Part shown: piece by piece, positions 8,895 through 14,724 of the stretch
Layout of the letters: every line of letters begins with the position of its first letter
Numbering within the stretch: the first letter of the stretch is position 1
Assembly (NCBI GenBank): GCA_963668625.2
Contig: CAXXKA010000008.1
Coordinates: 544,001-608,000, forward strand
Length of the DNA stretch: 64,000 nucleotides
Direction: 5' to 3'
Source of the DNA: an uncultured candidate division Zixibacteria bacterium
Lineage (GTDB): Bacteria; Zixibacteria; MSB-5A5; UBA10806; 4484-95
The notes under the pieces: generated by a model
Database searches by the model: none
What the model saw: only the letters and a program-made list of their open reading frames with translations
Told to the model about the DNA's origin: nothing
Translations under genes and position numbers: made by a program

Positions 8895-10172
8895 ATGAAA
8901 TACTACACCTCGTTGAGACCCTATGTCTCTAAAAGAATCGAGTTAATCGAGAAGGCCGATATATTAGTCGGTATCCCGGCGTACAATAATATGGGAACTG
9001 TCGGGCATGTGATCGAGATGGTATCGAGTGGCCTGTATGATCATTTCAAGGATAAACGGTCGGTGATAATGATCGCAGACGGCGGTTCCACCGATGATAC
9101 CCGTGATGTTTGCGATACCACGCCGATTAAACCCTGGCAGGAGAAACTCGTTACGATATATCGAGGGCCGTCCGGTAAAGGTACCGCCCTGCGTTCGATA
9201 TTCGAGGCCGCCGACCGTCTGAAAGTAAAAGCCTGTATGGTGGTCGATTCGGATTTGCGCAGTATCACCGGCGACTGGGTAAAAAACCTGCTCGATCCGG
9301 TTATTCTCCAGGATTTCGATTTCGTCGCCCCAATATATTGCCGTCACAAATACGATGGCACTATCACCAATAACGTGGTGTACTATCTCACCCGCTCGCT
9401 ATACGGTAAACGCGTCCGTCAACCTATTGGCGGCGATTTCGCCATCTCGCAGCGTATGGCGAATTTCTATATGAACCAGGATGTCTGGGAGACCGATATC
9501 GCCAAGTTCGGCGTGGATATCTGGATGACTACCAGCGCTATCGTTAACGATTTCAAAACCTGTCAGGCTCATCTAGGGGTGAAAGTTCATGATGCAAAAG
9601 ACCCGGCGGTGCATCTGGCGCCAATGTACAGGCAGGTGGTAACTACGCTATTTGCCCTGATGGAACAATACGACAAGCATTGGCGAACAGTCGAAGGCTC
9701 GGAGCCTACTCCTATATTCGGCCAGGACCCGGGAATCGAGCCCGAGCCGATTACGGTGGATGTCAAAGCACTGGTCAGGAAATTCAGGTTCGGCTACAAA
9801 TATTTCGGTGTGCTCTGGCAAAAACTGTTTTCCGAGGGAGTATATGAGGAGATCAAGAAAGCCTCGAAACTTTCGGATGAGGAATTCACATTCGATATAG
9901 AGGTTTGGGCGAAGATATTATTCGAGATTGCCGCCACATTCCATAAATGGGAGCACAACAAATTCAAGCTGGTTGAACTTTCCACACCGTTGTACTATGG
10001 ACGTATCGCGTCGTTTATCAATAAGACGAAGGATTTATCCAGTCTGGAGGCCGAAAAGGTAGTCGAGAAAGATGCTGAAGTATACGAGAAGATGAAACCG
10101 GTACTTCTGGATTTATGGGATAGGCCGCTCGAAAATCATTTCGATACCGATCCGGAGCTTGATGATGTATAA
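8895..10172 (+). CDS. Glucosylglycerate/mannosylglycerate synthase-like GT2 glycosyltransferase
   Basis: VGIPAYNN, DGGSTDDT, GKGTAL, VDSDLRSI, RQPIGGDF, FGVDIWMT, KVHDAKDP. Confidence 0.75.
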   Translation: MKYYTSLRPYVSKRIELIEKADILVGIPAYNNMGTVGHVIEMVSSGLYDHFKDKRSVIMIADGGSTDDTRDVCDTTPIKPWQEKLVTIYRGPSGKGTALRSIFEAADRLKVKACMVVDSDLRSITGDWVKNLLDPVILQDFDFVAPIYCRHKYDGTITNNVVYYLTRSLYGKRVRQPIGGDFAISQRMANFYMNQDVWETDIAKFGVDIWMTTSAIVNDFKTCQAHLGVKVHDAKDPAVHLAPMYRQVVTTLFALMEQYDKHWRTVEGSEPTPIFGQDPGIEPEPITVDVKALVRKFRFGYKYFGVLWQKLFSEGVYEEIKKASKLSDEEFTFDIEVWAKILFEIAATFHKWEHNKFKLVELSTPLYYGRIASFINKTKDLSSLEAEKVVEKDAEVYEKMKPVLLDLWDRPLENHFDTDPELDDV

Positions 10173-10178
10173 TGAAGC

Positions 10179-10997
10179 ATGGGAAATTTTAAATACGTAA
10201 TCTTTACCGATCTGGACGGCACTCTTCTGGATAAAAAGACATTTCATCCTGGATCGGCGCTAAATACTCTTCAACGATGCTATCAATCAGATATACCCGT
10301 TATATTCGTTTCTGCTAAAACTCGAGTAGAGATAGAGTCGATACGCAGCGAATTAGATAATTTCCACCCGTTCGTCTCGGAAAACGGCGGCGGACTATAT
10401 ATCCCCGATAACTTATTCGATCGACCGGCTGGGTTTTCCCACGTTGGACAATATTGGGTAAGATGTGCCTCGGAGACCATAGCCGAATTGCGGCGGGCGT
10501 TGAAAGAGATTGCCGATGACCTGAGTATCGATATCAGGAATTTCAGTGATATGCATCCGGTCGAGATCGCTGCAATCACCGGTCTCGATCATATCAGGGC
10601 GAAACTTGCAGGACAGCGCGAATTCGATGAGCCTTTTCAAATAGTAGATGAGACTCCGGAGAAGATCGAAGCGGTTATAGCGCAAATCGTCAATCGTGGC
10701 TACCGTCACACCGAGGGCGGGATACTTCATCATATAACAGGTAATTTCAACAAAGGCGAGACGCTCGAGAACCTCAAACATCTATACGAAAATGACAATC
10801 CGAGCGTGAAATTTATCGGGTTGGGGGACGCTTTCAATGATATTCCCATGCTGAAAATCGTAGATCACCCGTTTCTCGTGCGCAAAAATGATGGTAGCGT
10901 TGAGCAAGTGGATGGTCTTGACAAGCTTAAGGTTACCTCGGGTATTGGCCCGGATGGTTTTGTTGAAGCGATTGAGCCGTTTTTGGGGAATAGCTGA
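10179..10997 (+). CDS. mpgP: Mannosyl/glucosyl-3-phosphoglycerate phosphatase (HAD IIB)
   Basis: FTDLDGTLL, SAKT, ENGG, REFDEPF, GLGDAFND. Confidence 0.85.
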   Translation: MGNFKYVIFTDLDGTLLDKKTFHPGSALNTLQRCYQSDIPVIFVSAKTRVEIESIRSELDNFHPFVSENGGGLYIPDNLFDRPAGFSHVGQYWVRCASETIAELRRALKEIADDLSIDIRNFSDMHPVEIAAITGLDHIRAKLAGQREFDEPFQIVDETPEKIEAVIAQIVNRGYRHTEGGILHHITGNFNKGETLENLKHLYENDNPSVKFIGLGDAFNDIPMLKIVDHPFLVRKNDGSVEQVDGLDKLKVTSGIGPDGFVEAIEPFLGNS

Positions 10998-11129
10998 TTT
11001 CGATAACTCACGAATAAGCTTCTCGTCACACATTATGTATCATATTTCCCTTTTTTGTTTTGTGATTGATCTTAAAATGTATATACTGACTTATTATATT
11101 GTTAAAAAAGGAGATGGTACGATAAAAGC

Positions 11130-11346
11130 ATCTTGCTAATCTATTCTGTTGGTGTTAGAGCTTCGGTAATGAATTTCTAACTGGAGCGGATAGGTTATAG
11201 GCTGAACTGAATGCTTGAGGCCAGACCTCGTAAAGGAGATTAATCAGACCTGTAACCGAATTGCCACCATAAGGCAAAGACCTTGAATAGGAGTTTGGTA
11301 GGCGCCGACAGAGAGTCTGCTCCAGTGATAACCATAGAATGGAGCA
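11130..11346 (+). ncRNA. Putative IS110 bridge RNA
   Basis: Structured left end (ggttataggctga/tcagacctgtaacc, ttgcc/ggcaa, tgctcca/tggagca stems) containing AAAGGAG (target-like), ATAGGAG and ACCAT (donor-like); boundaries approximate. Confidence 0.55.
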
Positions 11347-11351
11347 AGAAG

Positions 11352-12365
11352 ATGAGGTACTTAGGAGTAGACCTTCACACAAACAGTTTGACCGTGTGTT
11401 ACCTGACAGCCGGTGGTCGGGAGAGGATCAAGGAGTATCGGCTAAAGGATCTAAAGGAATTTAAACGAGGATTAAAAAAGACGGATTGTGTAGCGGTTGA
11501 GGCCACTGGCAACACTCGTTATTTCGTTGATGAGATATCGCATTTGGTCAAGCGAGTTGTTGTCGTCGATCCGAACAAATTTGAGATAATCAAATCATCA
11601 GTCAGTAAGACGGATGAAAACGATGCCAGGAACTTAGCCTATTTTATGAGCAAAGACATGTTGCCGAAAGCCCGATTAAAGACGAAAGATAAAGCGCAGA
11701 TCAGTTCACTTGTTGGGACACGGGACAAGCTGGTCAAGTTACGTACAGCTTTGAAGAATAAAATACACAACATACTCAATCATCATGGTATCAAGAGTAA
11801 AAAGGAGGCCTACTCCAGCAACAAGAGTTTGGAGCGGGTTCTAAAGATGAATTTTGATGAGGTTGTTTCTGTTGAGCTTGAGGTATTGGTTGATCAGATT
11901 CGCAGTTTGAATGAGGGGATAAAAAAGCTGGACAAACAGATAGAGGATCAGGGTCGCAAGTTGAACGGGCATAAGAACCTGACCAGCATCAAAGGAATCG
12001 GCAGCAAATCAGCTACAGTGTTGCTTTCGGTAATTGGTGATGTTGCTGATTTTTCGGACAAAGATAAATTGGCCTCATATTTTGGCGTAGTGCCGCGAGT
12101 TTCCAATTCAAACGAGATTCAGCATCATGGTCGGATTACCAAGCGTGGTTCTAAGATTGGTCGGACTACACTGGTGCAGTGTACGCTTGTTGCCATACGA
12201 TATAACCATTACTTGAGTAAATATTACAATCGTATAAAAAACCGTCGTGGCAGCGGTAAGGCTATCATTGCCACAGCCAGAAAATTACTGGGAATAATCT
12301 ATGACACCTTGAAAAATAATTGGGTGTTTGAAGATTTCCCTAACTTTGTGTTAGCAAACAGATAA
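11352..12365 (+). CDS. IS110 family transposase/recombinase
   Basis: YLGVDLH, VEATG, KTDENDA (DEDD RuvC-like); SIKGIG, ASYFGVVP..SNS, GRITKRG; ATG at 11352 with GGAG RBS preferred over the TTG start in the track. Confidence 0.93.
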   Translation: MRYLGVDLHTNSLTVCYLTAGGRERIKEYRLKDLKEFKRGLKKTDCVAVEATGNTRYFVDEISHLVKRVVVVDPNKFEIIKSSVSKTDENDARNLAYFMSKDMLPKARLKTKDKAQISSLVGTRDKLVKLRTALKNKIHNILNHHGIKSKKEAYSSNKSLERVLKMNFDEVVSVELEVLVDQIRSLNEGIKKLDKQIEDQGRKLNGHKNLTSIKGIGSKSATVLLSVIGDVADFSDKDKLASYFGVVPRVSNSNEIQHHGRITKRGSKIGRTTLVQCTLVAIRYNHYLSKYYNRIKNRRGSGKAIIATARKLLGIIYDTLKNNWVFEDFPNFVLANR

Positions 12366-12404
12366 CTGAAATTTGGAGTAGACTTTTATCATAGGAGTAA
12401 AATA

Positions 12405-13922
12405 ATGTCGGAAAAAGCTAAAAACGCGCTCGATGAATTAACCCGGGAAATTAAACAGATCAGCCTACTCGGTTCATGCTCGGCTTTGCTGGGATGGGAT
12501 GAACGTGCTTATATGCCGAGAAACGGCGCAGGTCATCGTGCGGAGCAGCACTCCCTGATAGCTGGGATGGCACATGAAAAATTCACCTCCTCGAAGATCG
12601 GCGATTTGTTGGGTGAAGTGGAAAACAGTGATTTAATCAGCGATCCGTTGTCAATCGCCGCGGTTAATGTTCGTGAAATCAGGCGAGCCTACGATAAAAA
12701 AGTGAAATTACCGAGAGATTTGGTCGAGCAGATCAGTAAAACCACTACGCTTTCGGAACATGCATGGGTGAATGCTCGCAAAAATTCCGATTTCACCGGT
12801 TTCGCGCCCTGGCTTTCCAAAATGATGGACCTTCGCATGCAAGAGGCCGAGGCGGTTGGATATAGTAATGAGCCATACGACGCTCTTCTGGATGATTACG
12901 AGCCGGGCGAGACCGCCGAAAATATCGCGAGCGTATTCGAAAACCTCAGAAAGGATTTGGTACCGTTGGTGGACGCCATAGCCAATGCCCCTAAAAAACC
13001 GGATGTCACCATACTCGAACGTGATTATCCGGTTGATTTGCAGAAGGTATTCGGGAAATCCGCCTCAGCCGCGATCGGTTTCGATTTTAACGGTGGCCGC
13101 CTCGATGTTACCACTCATCCGTTTTGCACCACTATCGGCGTGGGCGATATCAGGATATTGACTCGCTATAATCCCAACCACCTGGGGCAGGCTTTCTTCG
13201 GTACGCTTCACGAAAGCGGCCATGGCCTGTACGAGCAAGGCATGAATCCCGATCATTTCGGTACACCTATGGGAGAGACCATTTCGCTGGGTATACATGA
13301 ATCACAGTCGCGGTTGTGGGAAAATATCGTCGGCCGCTCCCGATCGTTCTGGCAGTATTTCTTCCCCCGTGCTCGCCAGGTCTTCTGGGATTCCTTAAAC
13401 GATGTCAGCCTGGATGATTTCTATTTCGCGGTTAACGATGTTCGTCCGTCTCTGGTGAGGGTCGAGGCCGATGAGGCTACCTACAACCTTCATATACTAA
13501 TCCGGTTCGAAATCGAGCACGCGATATTCAAGAAAGAGCTGAAAATCGAGGATATCCCCGGTATCTGGAACGAGAAATTCAAGAAGTACCTGGGTATCAC
13601 TCCCCCTGATGACGCCAACGGTTGTTTGCAGGATGTCCACTGGGCGGCTGGTTTGATCGGCTATTTCCCTACGTATACGCTGGGAAACCTCTATTCGGCC
13701 CAATTCTTCGCCAAAGCCCAAAAAGACCTTGGCAATCTTGACGAGCAGTTCGCAATGGGCAAATTCGATAGCTTGCTGGGCTGGCTGAGAGAGAATATAC
13801 ACAGCCACGGGCAGAGATACCGGGCGGAGGAGCTGGTTAAAAAAGTCACCGGCGAGCCTCTTTCTCATAGGTACCTGATCGATTATCTTAGGGAAAAATA
13901 TTCCCCTCTTTACGGTATCTAG
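12405..13922 (+). CDS. Carboxypeptidase Taq (peptidase M32)
   Basis: HPF, HESGH, HESQS, RVEADE, GCLQDVHW, GYFPTY. Confidence 0.93.
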   Translation: MSEKAKNALDELTREIKQISLLGSCSALLGWDERAYMPRNGAGHRAEQHSLIAGMAHEKFTSSKIGDLLGEVENSDLISDPLSIAAVNVREIRRAYDKKVKLPRDLVEQISKTTTLSEHAWVNARKNSDFTGFAPWLSKMMDLRMQEAEAVGYSNEPYDALLDDYEPGETAENIASVFENLRKDLVPLVDAIANAPKKPDVTILERDYPVDLQKVFGKSASAAIGFDFNGGRLDVTTHPFCTTIGVGDIRILTRYNPNHLGQAFFGTLHESGHGLYEQGMNPDHFGTPMGETISLGIHESQSRLWENIVGRSRSFWQYFFPRARQVFWDSLNDVSLDDFYFAVNDVRPSLVRVEADEATYNLHILIRFEIEHAIFKKELKIEDIPGIWNEKFKKYLGITPPDDANGCLQDVHWAAGLIGYFPTYTLGNLYSAQFFAKAQKDLGNLDEQFAMGKFDSLLGWLRENIHSHGQRYRAEELVKKVTGEPLSHRYLIDYLREKYSPLYGI

Positions 13923-14190: not shown

Positions 14191-14724
14191 ATGCCGGCAA
14201 AAAAGAAAGCGGCAAAGAAGAAAGTCGCGAAGAAGAAAACGGCAAAGAAAAAAGTAGCTAAAAAGAAAGTTGCTAAGAAGAAAGTAACCAAGAAAAAAGT
14301 AACTAAGAAGAAAGCTACCAAGAAAAAAGTCGCGAAGAAAAAAGTAGCCAAAAAGAAAGTAACCAAGAAAAAAGCCACTAAGAAAAAAGTAGCCAAAAAG
14401 AAAGTTGCTAAGAAAAAAGTAGCCAAGAAGAAAACAACCAAGAAGAAAGCTACCAAGAAAAAAGCCAAACGTAAACCGAATCCGGCTTTCATGGCTCCCT
14501 GGAATATTTCCGAGACACTGGCCGCGGTCGTTGGAAGCAAGCCGCTTCCGAGAACCGAGATCACCAAGAAGCTATGGGGTTATATCAAGAAGAACAAACT
14601 TCAGGATAAAGTACAGAAGACCATGATCAATGCTGATGATGTTCTGAAAAAAGTATTCGGCGGCAAAGCCAAGGTCAGCATGTTCGAAATGACCAAGCTG
14701 ATTTCCAAGCATCTTTCGAAATAA
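14191..14724 (+). CDS. Histone H1-like Lys-rich protein fused to SWIB/MDM2 domain
   Basis: 18 x KKK(V/A/T)(A/T/K) pentapeptides followed by [28 protein letters not shown]...[13 protein letters not shown]. Confidence 0.88.
14200..14469 (+). repeat. 15-bp degenerate coding tandem repeat (18 units)
   Basis: aaraaraaagtngcn-type units encoding KKKxx. Confidence 0.85.

Follow-up and report, generated by a model that had tools for sequence, protein, structure and literature searches.

Introduction

IS900, an insertion sequence of the IS110 family from Mycobacterium avium subsp. paratuberculosis, reportedly targets translation-initiation signals, to go by the title of a 1997 study by Doran et al. 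Its target motif is given as CATGNNNNNNTCTCCTT, which is the reverse complement of a Shine-Dalgarno (SD)-N6-start-codon site, and the relevant part of the same source states that the element rarely disrupts coding sequence (PMC8141618). For IS621, the parts of the bridge-RNA description that deal with its guides give the left target guide (LTG) and left donor guide (LDG) a top-strand sense, let them pair with the bottom strand and place them on the 5' side of the RNA loops, and a promoter split between right end and left end (RE-LE) is described there for IS621 and for earlier elements (PMC11208160). According to the same text, long sub-terminal repeats belong to the IS1111 group, whose RNA lies downstream of the transposase gene, and amount to only 2-3 bp in the IS110 group (PMC11208160). 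Recent preprints add copy-out excision and 'half-match' recombination for IS621-type elements. The present work concerns an IS110-family element in a 64,000-nt stretch of DNA (contig CAXXKA010000008.1 of assembly GCA_963668625.2, positions 544,001 to 608,000, forward strand; the whole stretch is hereafter called the window), which separates the SD sequence of a carboxypeptidase gene from its start codon and whose non-coding left end contains two segments that read like this target and like the right end of the element.

The reading preferred here, with a probability of roughly 80%, is that positions 11114-12397 hold an intact, active element of the bridge-recombinase type (IS110 family, IS110 group), with a guide RNA of two guide segments and with recombination inside GGAG. 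Judged from its sequence, it appears to be a bridge-RNA element whose guide is unusual in being very short and in spelling out the SD.

Insertion between a Shine-Dalgarno sequence and its start codon

The left flank reads ...GTTAAAAAAGGAG, with AAAGGAG at 11107-11113, and the element opens with the ten nucleotides ATGGTACGAT (11114-11123). At the right end, TAGACT (12379-12384), TTTATCAT, AGGAG (12393-12397), TAAAATA and the ATG of the carboxypeptidase gene (12405-12407) follow one another. GGAG is common to both junctions, and the crossover lies somewhere inside it. The terminal CATAGGAG (12390-12397) would supply the SD for the downstream gene.

The encoded protein places the element in its family. 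The N-terminal DEDD RuvC-like domain PF01548 was detected at 5.7e-13 and 49.4 bits (cut-off 29 bits), the C-terminal Tnp domain PF02371 at 5.4e-22, and the matches in the Protein Data Bank (PDB) were the ISCro4 and IS621 transposases, at E about 1e-12 and hence distant. In the ISCro4 alignment the GvD, EAT and KTDxxDA motifs line up, and the serines of a PRVSNS stretch, aligned to PRRYESGSS of ISCro4, are candidate catalytic residues. The two termini, a left end of 238 nt and a right end of 32 nt, are not inverted repeats of each other, and the longest antisense open reading frames (ORFs) inside the element measure 75 and 52 aa.

The initial annotation had placed the element in an SD site, and the sequence proved to be as it described, not only in the window. 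The genome of origin (assembly G000; 4.3 Mb, 45% GC, 10 contigs) contains 11 copies that differ by at most one single-nucleotide polymorphism, every ORF being intact; eight are identical across the 1,279-bp core, and the remaining three share a substitution of G for A at the equivalent of 11401. All 11 copies have (A/T)AAGGAG joined to ATGG... at the left junction, ...CATAGGAG as right end and an ATG 5-7 nt after AGGAG, and in all 11 the transposase gene is co-directional with the downstream gene. Nine of the downstream ORFs encode 116-758 aa, and Pfam domains were recognized in seven of the 11 (M32 and M14 carboxypeptidases, SnoaL-like, PSCyt1, BNR/sortilin repeats, glyoxalase and FG-GAP). 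A unitig spanning 11107/11108-12397 was present among the contigs of two runs of one sample, with a depth of 51 for the element versus 5.6-6.4 for the flanks in run X1 and of 17.1 in run X3, where the flanks had no coverage. Contigs of run X4 contain pieces identical to the element of the window, and in run X5, a wetland metagenome, a contig aligned to 11108-12398 contains a diverged relative whose two ends are the same and after which come AGGAG, 4 nt and ATG.

Since AGGAG occurs 7,222 times in the genome, the 5-nt AGGAG repeat is uninformative on its own. Sites were therefore counted with the copies removed in silico, an SD-type site being defined as (A/T)AAGGAG with an ATG 5-7 nt downstream that opens at least 30 codons. 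The genome has 840 (A/T)AAGGAG sites, 180 of the SD type and 660 others (328 genic sense, 141 genic antisense and 191 non-genic). The element occupies 11 of the 180 and none of the 660 (Fisher one-sided p = 3.4e-8); with non-genic sites alone, the chance of finding 11 of 11 at SD-type sites is 0.485^11 = 3.5e-4. A second IS110-family element of about 1.46 kb, with five near-identical copies in the same genome, is never found at GGAG sites, so the SD-site pattern is specific to the element described here. The copies of this second element (C1:622959, C4:59231, C5:25155, C6:580873 and C8:130667 in G000) have TTGACA near the right end and left flanks ending in ...CAG or similar.

It had also been proposed that removal of the element leaves a normal ribosome-binding site, and the genomes of the same genus bear this out at two of the four loci tried, where AAAAAGGAG-N6-ATG and CAAAGGAG-N5-ATG stand uninterrupted; these empty sites are orthologues at about 70% DNA identity rather than alleles of the same strain. 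The carboxypeptidase orthologue of G001 (76% aa identity), which like its counterpart in the window has the HAD gene upstream, shows ATTAAAAAGGAG-AAAAAT-ATG without interruption at its start, and that of G002 has AAAAAAGGAG upstream of its start. For a copy on contig C1, the orthologues in five relatives lack the element and have GGAG a few nucleotides before the start, and G001 reads CAAAGGAG-ACGTG-ATG at this locus. The queries used retrieved no same-genus orthologue for two further loci. The element itself was not found at E <= 1e-40 in 30 relatives, two of them of the same genus, repeats often being unassembled in fragmented genomes.

A predicted structured left-end RNA with two candidate guide segments

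The left end is predicted to fold into a structured RNA. Its minimum free energy is -80.5 kcal/mol (z = -5.4), none of 200 shuffled sequences folded as well, and Rfam contained no family for it, the sole match being osmY at chance level (E = 0.99). Relatives of the element were collected by a scan of one genome per species, which found 160, and the best 80 of the 160 (52-64% identity) were kept. Forty left ends were aligned, namely that of the window and 39 chosen, to thin near-identical rows, from 59 distinct sequences no longer than 300 nt; the consensus structure came from RNAalifold, and pairs were counted on a slightly edited version of it. In this alignment 94.5% of the cells are paired compared with 86.3% after shuffling (0/500) and 32-46% when the partners are slid, and 24 of the 37 pairs show compensatory changes on both sides. 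The architecture comprises a closing helix, a target arm built from a long helix, an internal loop and an inner hairpin, and a donor arm with a helix and an inner hairpin.

Two single-stranded segments of this RNA repeat the words at the junctions. Guide 1 has the sense of the left target AAAGGAG plus the first two nucleotides of the left end, and Guide 2 that of the element's right end, ATAGGAG; both have top-strand sense and would therefore pair with the bottom strand. Across 50 non-redundant rows, 138 of the 150 cells formed by the three Guide 1 bases that precede GGAG match the left flank, versus 112.1 ± 2.7 after shuffling (0/10,000), and the retargeted variants include CACGGAG, AGAGGAG, TTAGGAG, AATGGAG and TTAAGGAG. 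The agreement stops there, the fourth base upstream of GGAG matching the left flank in just 9 of 50 rows. The extension of Guide 1, two bases past GGAG, follows the first two nucleotides of the left end in 93 of 94 cells (0/10,000), AT going with AT in 37 rows and AC with AC in nine, with one miss. Guide 2 matches the right end in 96 of 96 cells and in all 32 non-redundant rows, including an A/G position (1 of 10,000 shuffles). By eye, in the alignment, neither the 5' strand of the first loop nor CCAU of helix 5 covaried consistently with the start of the left end or with the right flanks.

The AGGAG that stands on both sides at 11 of 11 own copies could in principle be an ordinary target-site duplication, produced by unguided transposition at a preferred word. 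The relatives L081, L043 and L069 argue against it, in which the base preceding GGAG is that of the target in the left flank and that of the element in the right end; the flanking repeat is consequently no target duplication, and since this base differs between left flank and right end, the shared sequence is at most GGAG and not AGGAG. Moreover, the CATAGGAG end is conserved as element end across phyla. The published accounts, in the parts concerned with the mechanism, have the IS110 family recombining at a short shared core (PMC11208160) and making no flanking direct target repeats (PMC8141618). We consider a duplication extremely improbable.

Relatives in other phyla

The relatives belong to Acidobacteriota, Omnitrophota, Spirochaetota, Alphaproteobacteria, Nitrospira, Planctomycetota and others, and a protein search returned 4,768 homologues at E <= 1e-30, which, where they had names at all, were called 'IS110 family transposase'. 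Among the 80 loci, 12 lacked a right end that could be recognized in the 260 nt after the stop codon, and three had too little flank. The left junction GGAG followed by A(T/C)G... was seen in 70 of the 80 loci, the other ten lacking the junction or the flank. An ORF was taken to be opened when a start codon lay 3-12 nt after the terminal GGAG and was followed by at least 60 codons, or by at least 30 up to the end of the locus. Such a start codon was present in 50 of the 65 distinct right flanks, 47 of the 50 being ATG, and the expectation that homologues, too, sit at SD sites is thereby supported. The other 15 comprise ten with an ATG opening 3-46 codons, one with TTG and four with none.

One acidobacterial subgroup (L069, L075, L077 and L079) departs from the rule. 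Its Guide 1 reads CACGGAG and its insertions lie at CACCACGGAG; three of the four flanks that lack any start codon belong to it, L079 having been counted among the 50 by way of a TTG 12 nt after GGAG. As CACGGAG-like units continue in the right flank of three of the four members, this subgroup seems to target a short tandem repeat and not an SD.

Single relatives offer further details. In L025 a 16-nt copy of the element end (ending in CATAGGAG) is repeated right after the right end, before the spacer and the ATG, and may be the footprint of an earlier insertion or excision. About ten copies (L036-L058) come from one complete alphaproteobacterial metagenome-assembled genome (MAG) chromosome, where the transposase ORF reaches the very end of the element and its stop codon overlaps the terminal ATAGGAG. 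The right flanks of L042 and L049 are nearly the same, so the targeted gene is itself repeated.

Joined ends

If the ends of the excised element were joined, 13 nt after TAGACT and 4 nt before TACGAT would place these two hexamers 17 nt apart, exactly as the initial annotation had it. Its further proposal, a junction promoter that points into the left end, may hold in part. When a -35-like hexamer was sought 16-18 nt upstream of the -10-like box across the joined ends of 45 distinct end pairs, the best match to TTGACA averaged 4.6 of 6 positions, compared with 2.5 of 6 for windows slid by 4-29 nt, and the best spacer measured 17 nt in 32 of the pairs and 18 nt in the other 13. This conserved -35-like box, which lies mostly outside the inverted repeat, suggests a promoter at the level of sequence. 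The -10-like hexamers read TAYGAT, TATGAA or CATGAA, and 25 of the 45 match TATAAT at four or more positions; because this box lies inside the inverted repeat, its conservation lends the promoter no support on its own.

The sub-terminal inverted repeat in question (I14) pairs 11118-11128 with 12383-12393 over 11 nt, 91% of them complementary. Repeats of 9-14 nt occur in 44 end pairs (L015-L088), and their arms covary in 391 of 528 cells versus 296.8 ± 11.1 after shuffling (0/5,000). In the Logan contigs of four runs, which drop rare forms, neither a right-end-to-left-end joint nor a contig that skips the element was seen.

Objections and the exclusive use of Shine-Dalgarno sites

Several observations weigh against the preferred reading. 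The covariation of Guide 2 comes down to one variable position (ATAGGAG or ATGGGAG), whose variant is restricted to one acidobacterial group, and the Guide 2 extension shows no signal towards the right flank (42/120 versus 38.4 shuffled). No guide was found for the right flank or for the left end past 2 nt, which would be the counterparts of the right target guide (RTG) and right donor guide (RDG), and both guides lie on the 3' side of their loops instead of the 5' side used by IS621. The relatives are not independent and come mostly from MAG contigs. Two of the 11 own sites open ORFs of a mere 34 and 39 aa, and the ten short-ORF sites of the homologues yield only 3-46 aa. The gene map is crude, consisting of ORFs of at least 100 aa that cover 85.8% of the genome. 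In the joined ends, the window's pair TAGACT/TACGAT matches 8 of 12 positions, below the scan threshold of 9 of 12, and conservation of the -10-like box may serve protein binding. Finally, a 7-nt match cannot alone explain 11 of 11 copies at SD-plus-ATG sites.

Some of these points would suit a different role for the GGAG segments, namely as protein- or ribosome-binding regulators that mimic an SD, with the recombinase protein itself picking the target. Both segments strongly resemble an SD and lie in an mRNA leader, right-hand guides were not found, and the position in the loops is unlike that in IS621. However, segment 1 varies in step with the left flank, also in elements whose targets are non-SD words (CACGGAG, for example), and in 46 of 47 rows its 2-nt extension follows the AT or AC that opens the left end; neither segment has a start codon at SD spacing. 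On balance, regulators of this kind are improbable.

The exclusive occupancy of SD sites is probably due to selection that removes insertions elsewhere, though we hold this with little more than even confidence; that a further determinant is read at insertion is a serious contender. Flank AT-richness was tried as the cause and rejected, the SD fraction rising merely from 0.21 to 0.32-0.47. A further determinant would mean that the element reads more than the 7-nt match, be it the start codon or another property of the initiation region, and that occupancy reflects targeting and not survivorship. The additional feature might be read by the protein or by an unrecognized guide, or might be the state of a transcribed AT-rich 5' untranslated region (UTR). 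Such targeting would fit the absence of the element from all 660 non-SD sites and the probability that remains with non-genic sites only. An ATG stands even before short ORFs, at two of 11 own sites and in ten of the 15 homologue flanks without a long ORF, against an expectation for a 10-position window of roughly 15%, which is an estimate and not a computed value. T at +1 was found in nine of the 11 occupied sites compared with 23% of the unoccupied SD-type sites (P = 6e-5 before correction for 18 positions). The left end has ATG at +6 to +8 in 32 of 45 end pairs, whereby the joined ends resemble SD-5 nt-ATG, and the IS900 target motif, as published, includes CATG (PMC8141618).

Other observations speak against such targeting. 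The distance between GGAG and ATG varies (4-11 nt), contrary to what fixed-register base-pairing would lead one to expect, and no RNA segment covaries with the right flank. AT-richness of the flanks leaves the pattern unexplained, and the short ORFs may be genuine small genes. Three of the four distinct right flanks in the CACGGAG subgroup have no nearby ATG, and the left end in the window has ACG, not ATG, at +6 to +8. Targeting by more than the 7-nt match is accordingly put forward tentatively, as the less favored account. The +1 T also equals the first base of the Guide 2 extension, and the right flanks of three multi-copy relatives, inspected by eye, showed no preference for it. The right flanks of the 11 nearly identical own copies vary.

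Features and surroundings of the element

The coordinates of the features are collected in Table 1. The host gene has its promoter-like sites 15-50 nt before the insertion, immediately ahead of the interrupted 5' UTR, and a similar TATATACT box precedes the orthologous gene in G001. A scan found no terminator-like site on the + strand within the element; with promoter-like sites upstream and no terminator, host transcription should cross the guide RNA, the transposase gene and the host gene.

Directly upstream of the element stands a gene pair for a GT2 glycosyltransferase and a HAD-type hydrolase (8895-10997, +), and the adjacency of the HAD and carboxypeptidase genes is kept in G001, G002 and G005. 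Further downstream (14191-14724, +) a 177-aa protein is encoded that consists of a long Lys/Ala/Thr/Val-rich repeat and, after it, a SWIB/MDM2 domain (PF02201, 1.1e-27).

Table 1. Positions of the element, its predicted RNA parts and the flanking host features in the window
Feature	Position	Strand	Remarks
Two overlapping promoter-like sites of the host gene	11060..11100	+	TTGTGA-16-TATACT and TTAAAA-17-TATATT; consensus scan only
Left target half, host SD AAAGGAG	11107..11113	+	now split from its start codon
IS110-family element	11114..12397	+	1,284 bp including the right-hand GGAG; 238-nt left end, 337-aa ORF and 32-nt right end
Non-coding left end, bridge-RNA-like structured RNA	11114..11351	+	238 nt
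Inverted-repeat left arm with -10-like hexamer	11118..11128	+	TACGAT at 11118-11123
5' stem-loop of the RNA	11155..11180	+	variable among relatives
Closing helix P1, 5' strand	11183..11190	+	pairs with 11316-11323; 8 pairs, 6 changed on both sides, 95.9% of cells paired
Target-arm helix, 5' strand	11193..11205	+	pairs with 11244-11257; 11 pairs, 8 changed on both sides
Target-arm inner hairpin	11217..11229	+	helix 4; 5 pairs, 4 compensatory
Guide 1, UAAAGGAGAU	11231..11240	+	single-stranded, 3' side of first loop
Donor arm	11264..11302	+	helices 5 (11264-11270 with 11296-11302) and 6, inner hairpin and Guide 2
Guide 2, AAUAGGAGUU	11286..11295	+	bulge, 3' side of donor arm
Closing helix P1, 3' strand	11316..11323	+	pairs with 11183-11190
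Transposase/recombinase, DEDD/Ser	11352..12365	+	337 aa; PF01548 and PF02371
Right end	12366..12397	+	32 nt; -35-like TAGACT 12379-12384; inverted-repeat arm 12383-12393; terminal CATAGGAG 12390-12397
Right target half, spacer and Peptidase_M32 carboxypeptidase gene	12398..13922	+	7-nt spacer; ATG at 12405, 505-aa ORF

Proposed mechanism and its meaning

The observations suggest the following path. The left end would encode a structured RNA with two single-stranded guide segments, one of which, Guide 2 (AUAGGAG), would base-pair with the right end of the element itself, and recombination would take place within the GGAG common to the target and the joined ends. The element would thus enter directly 3' of the SD, oriented with the gene and with GGAG kept at both junctions, and the downstream gene would retain an SD at the original spacing, while the host promoter would read into the guide RNA and the transposase gene. 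Excision would join the right and left ends, bringing the -35-like and -10-like boxes to a distance of 17 nt in a putative promoter that would fire into the left end.

The SD is restored because of the shared GGAG core together with the element's own AT(A/G)GGAG end, and since this core leaves the gene its SD, the host should suffer little damage. That the element uses SD sites for the very reason that its end re-supplies the SD, as the initial annotation supposed, is a reasonable inference, but restoration also follows automatically from the shared core. A bolder version, which we think rather unlikely, is that the whole clade recognizes the translation-initiation region, either SD plus start codon or an open transcribed 5' UTR, through a determinant beyond the two guides; the joined ends would mimic this region, and, with every insertion in sense orientation and placed between promoter and start codon, host promoters would drive guide RNA and recombinase while the host gene stays translatable. 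If so, the near-universal SD would serve as a landing pad that does not depend on the host, which might account for the distribution over so many phyla.

A guide that spells a ribosome-binding motif would find hundreds of landing sites in almost any bacterium. Such a generic target differs from the long, rare targets of IS621 and fits the wide spread of the relatives over phyla. For annotation, insertions within 5' UTRs deserve attention, in which the host gene would be co-transcribed with the transposase gene; for engineering, the clade may offer a bridge system whose guides are short and lie on the opposite side of the loops, and which seems to be only half specified. A literature search found no bridge or seek RNA aimed at an SD, the supplementary natural-target tables of the bridge-RNA papers lying outside the search and possibly holding cases.

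Comparison with known systems

Among the closest described systems are the IS621/bridge-RNA elements (Durrant et al. 2024, PMC11208160; Hiraizumi et al. 2024, PMC11208158). As far as the sections concerned with IS621 describe it, the two systems share a recombinase of the DEDD and Ser type in which both Pfam domains recur, a left end that is long and non-coding, a structured two-loop RNA whose guides have left-target and left-donor sense and include the core, and a multi-copy, site-specific lifestyle; the promoter that IS621 splits between its ends may have a counterpart in the -35-like and -10-like boxes of the present element. The copy-out and half-match preprints, by analogy, would be compatible with an element that has many copies and shows its specificity on just one half.

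The differences, set against the same sections, are numerous. The protein is distant (E about 1e-12), the guides occupy the 3' rather than the 5' side of the loops, and no right-target or right-donor guide was found in the present element. The left target guide has 7 nt compared with a target of 11-14 nt in IS621, the left target and the left donor are near-identical words (AAAGGAG and ATAGGAG), and the shared core may be as long as 4 nt (GGAG) in place of a CT dinucleotide. The target is a functional gene motif and not a repetitive extragenic palindromic (REP) element, and sub-terminal inverted repeats of 9-14 nt flank the joined ends, unlike in the IS110 group as published. Such repeats, together with a specific, RNA-guided target, recall the IS1111-group/seekRNA elements in the described portion of that system (Siddiquee et al. 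2024, PMC11187229), but the RNA lies upstream of the transposase gene here, as in the IS110 group.

IS900, compared by description only, likewise has SD plus start codon as its target. The host signals are said to serve an element-spanning ORF, hed, which is encoded opposite to the transposase gene, whereas the present element has no long antisense ORF; and because hed lies on the opposite strand, the IS900 transposase gene would be antisense to the targeted gene, while here the two are co-directional in 11 of 11 copies. The element described here may offer an RNA-level explanation for the targeting of translation starts by IS900, and IS900 is the older precedent for aiming at translation start signals.

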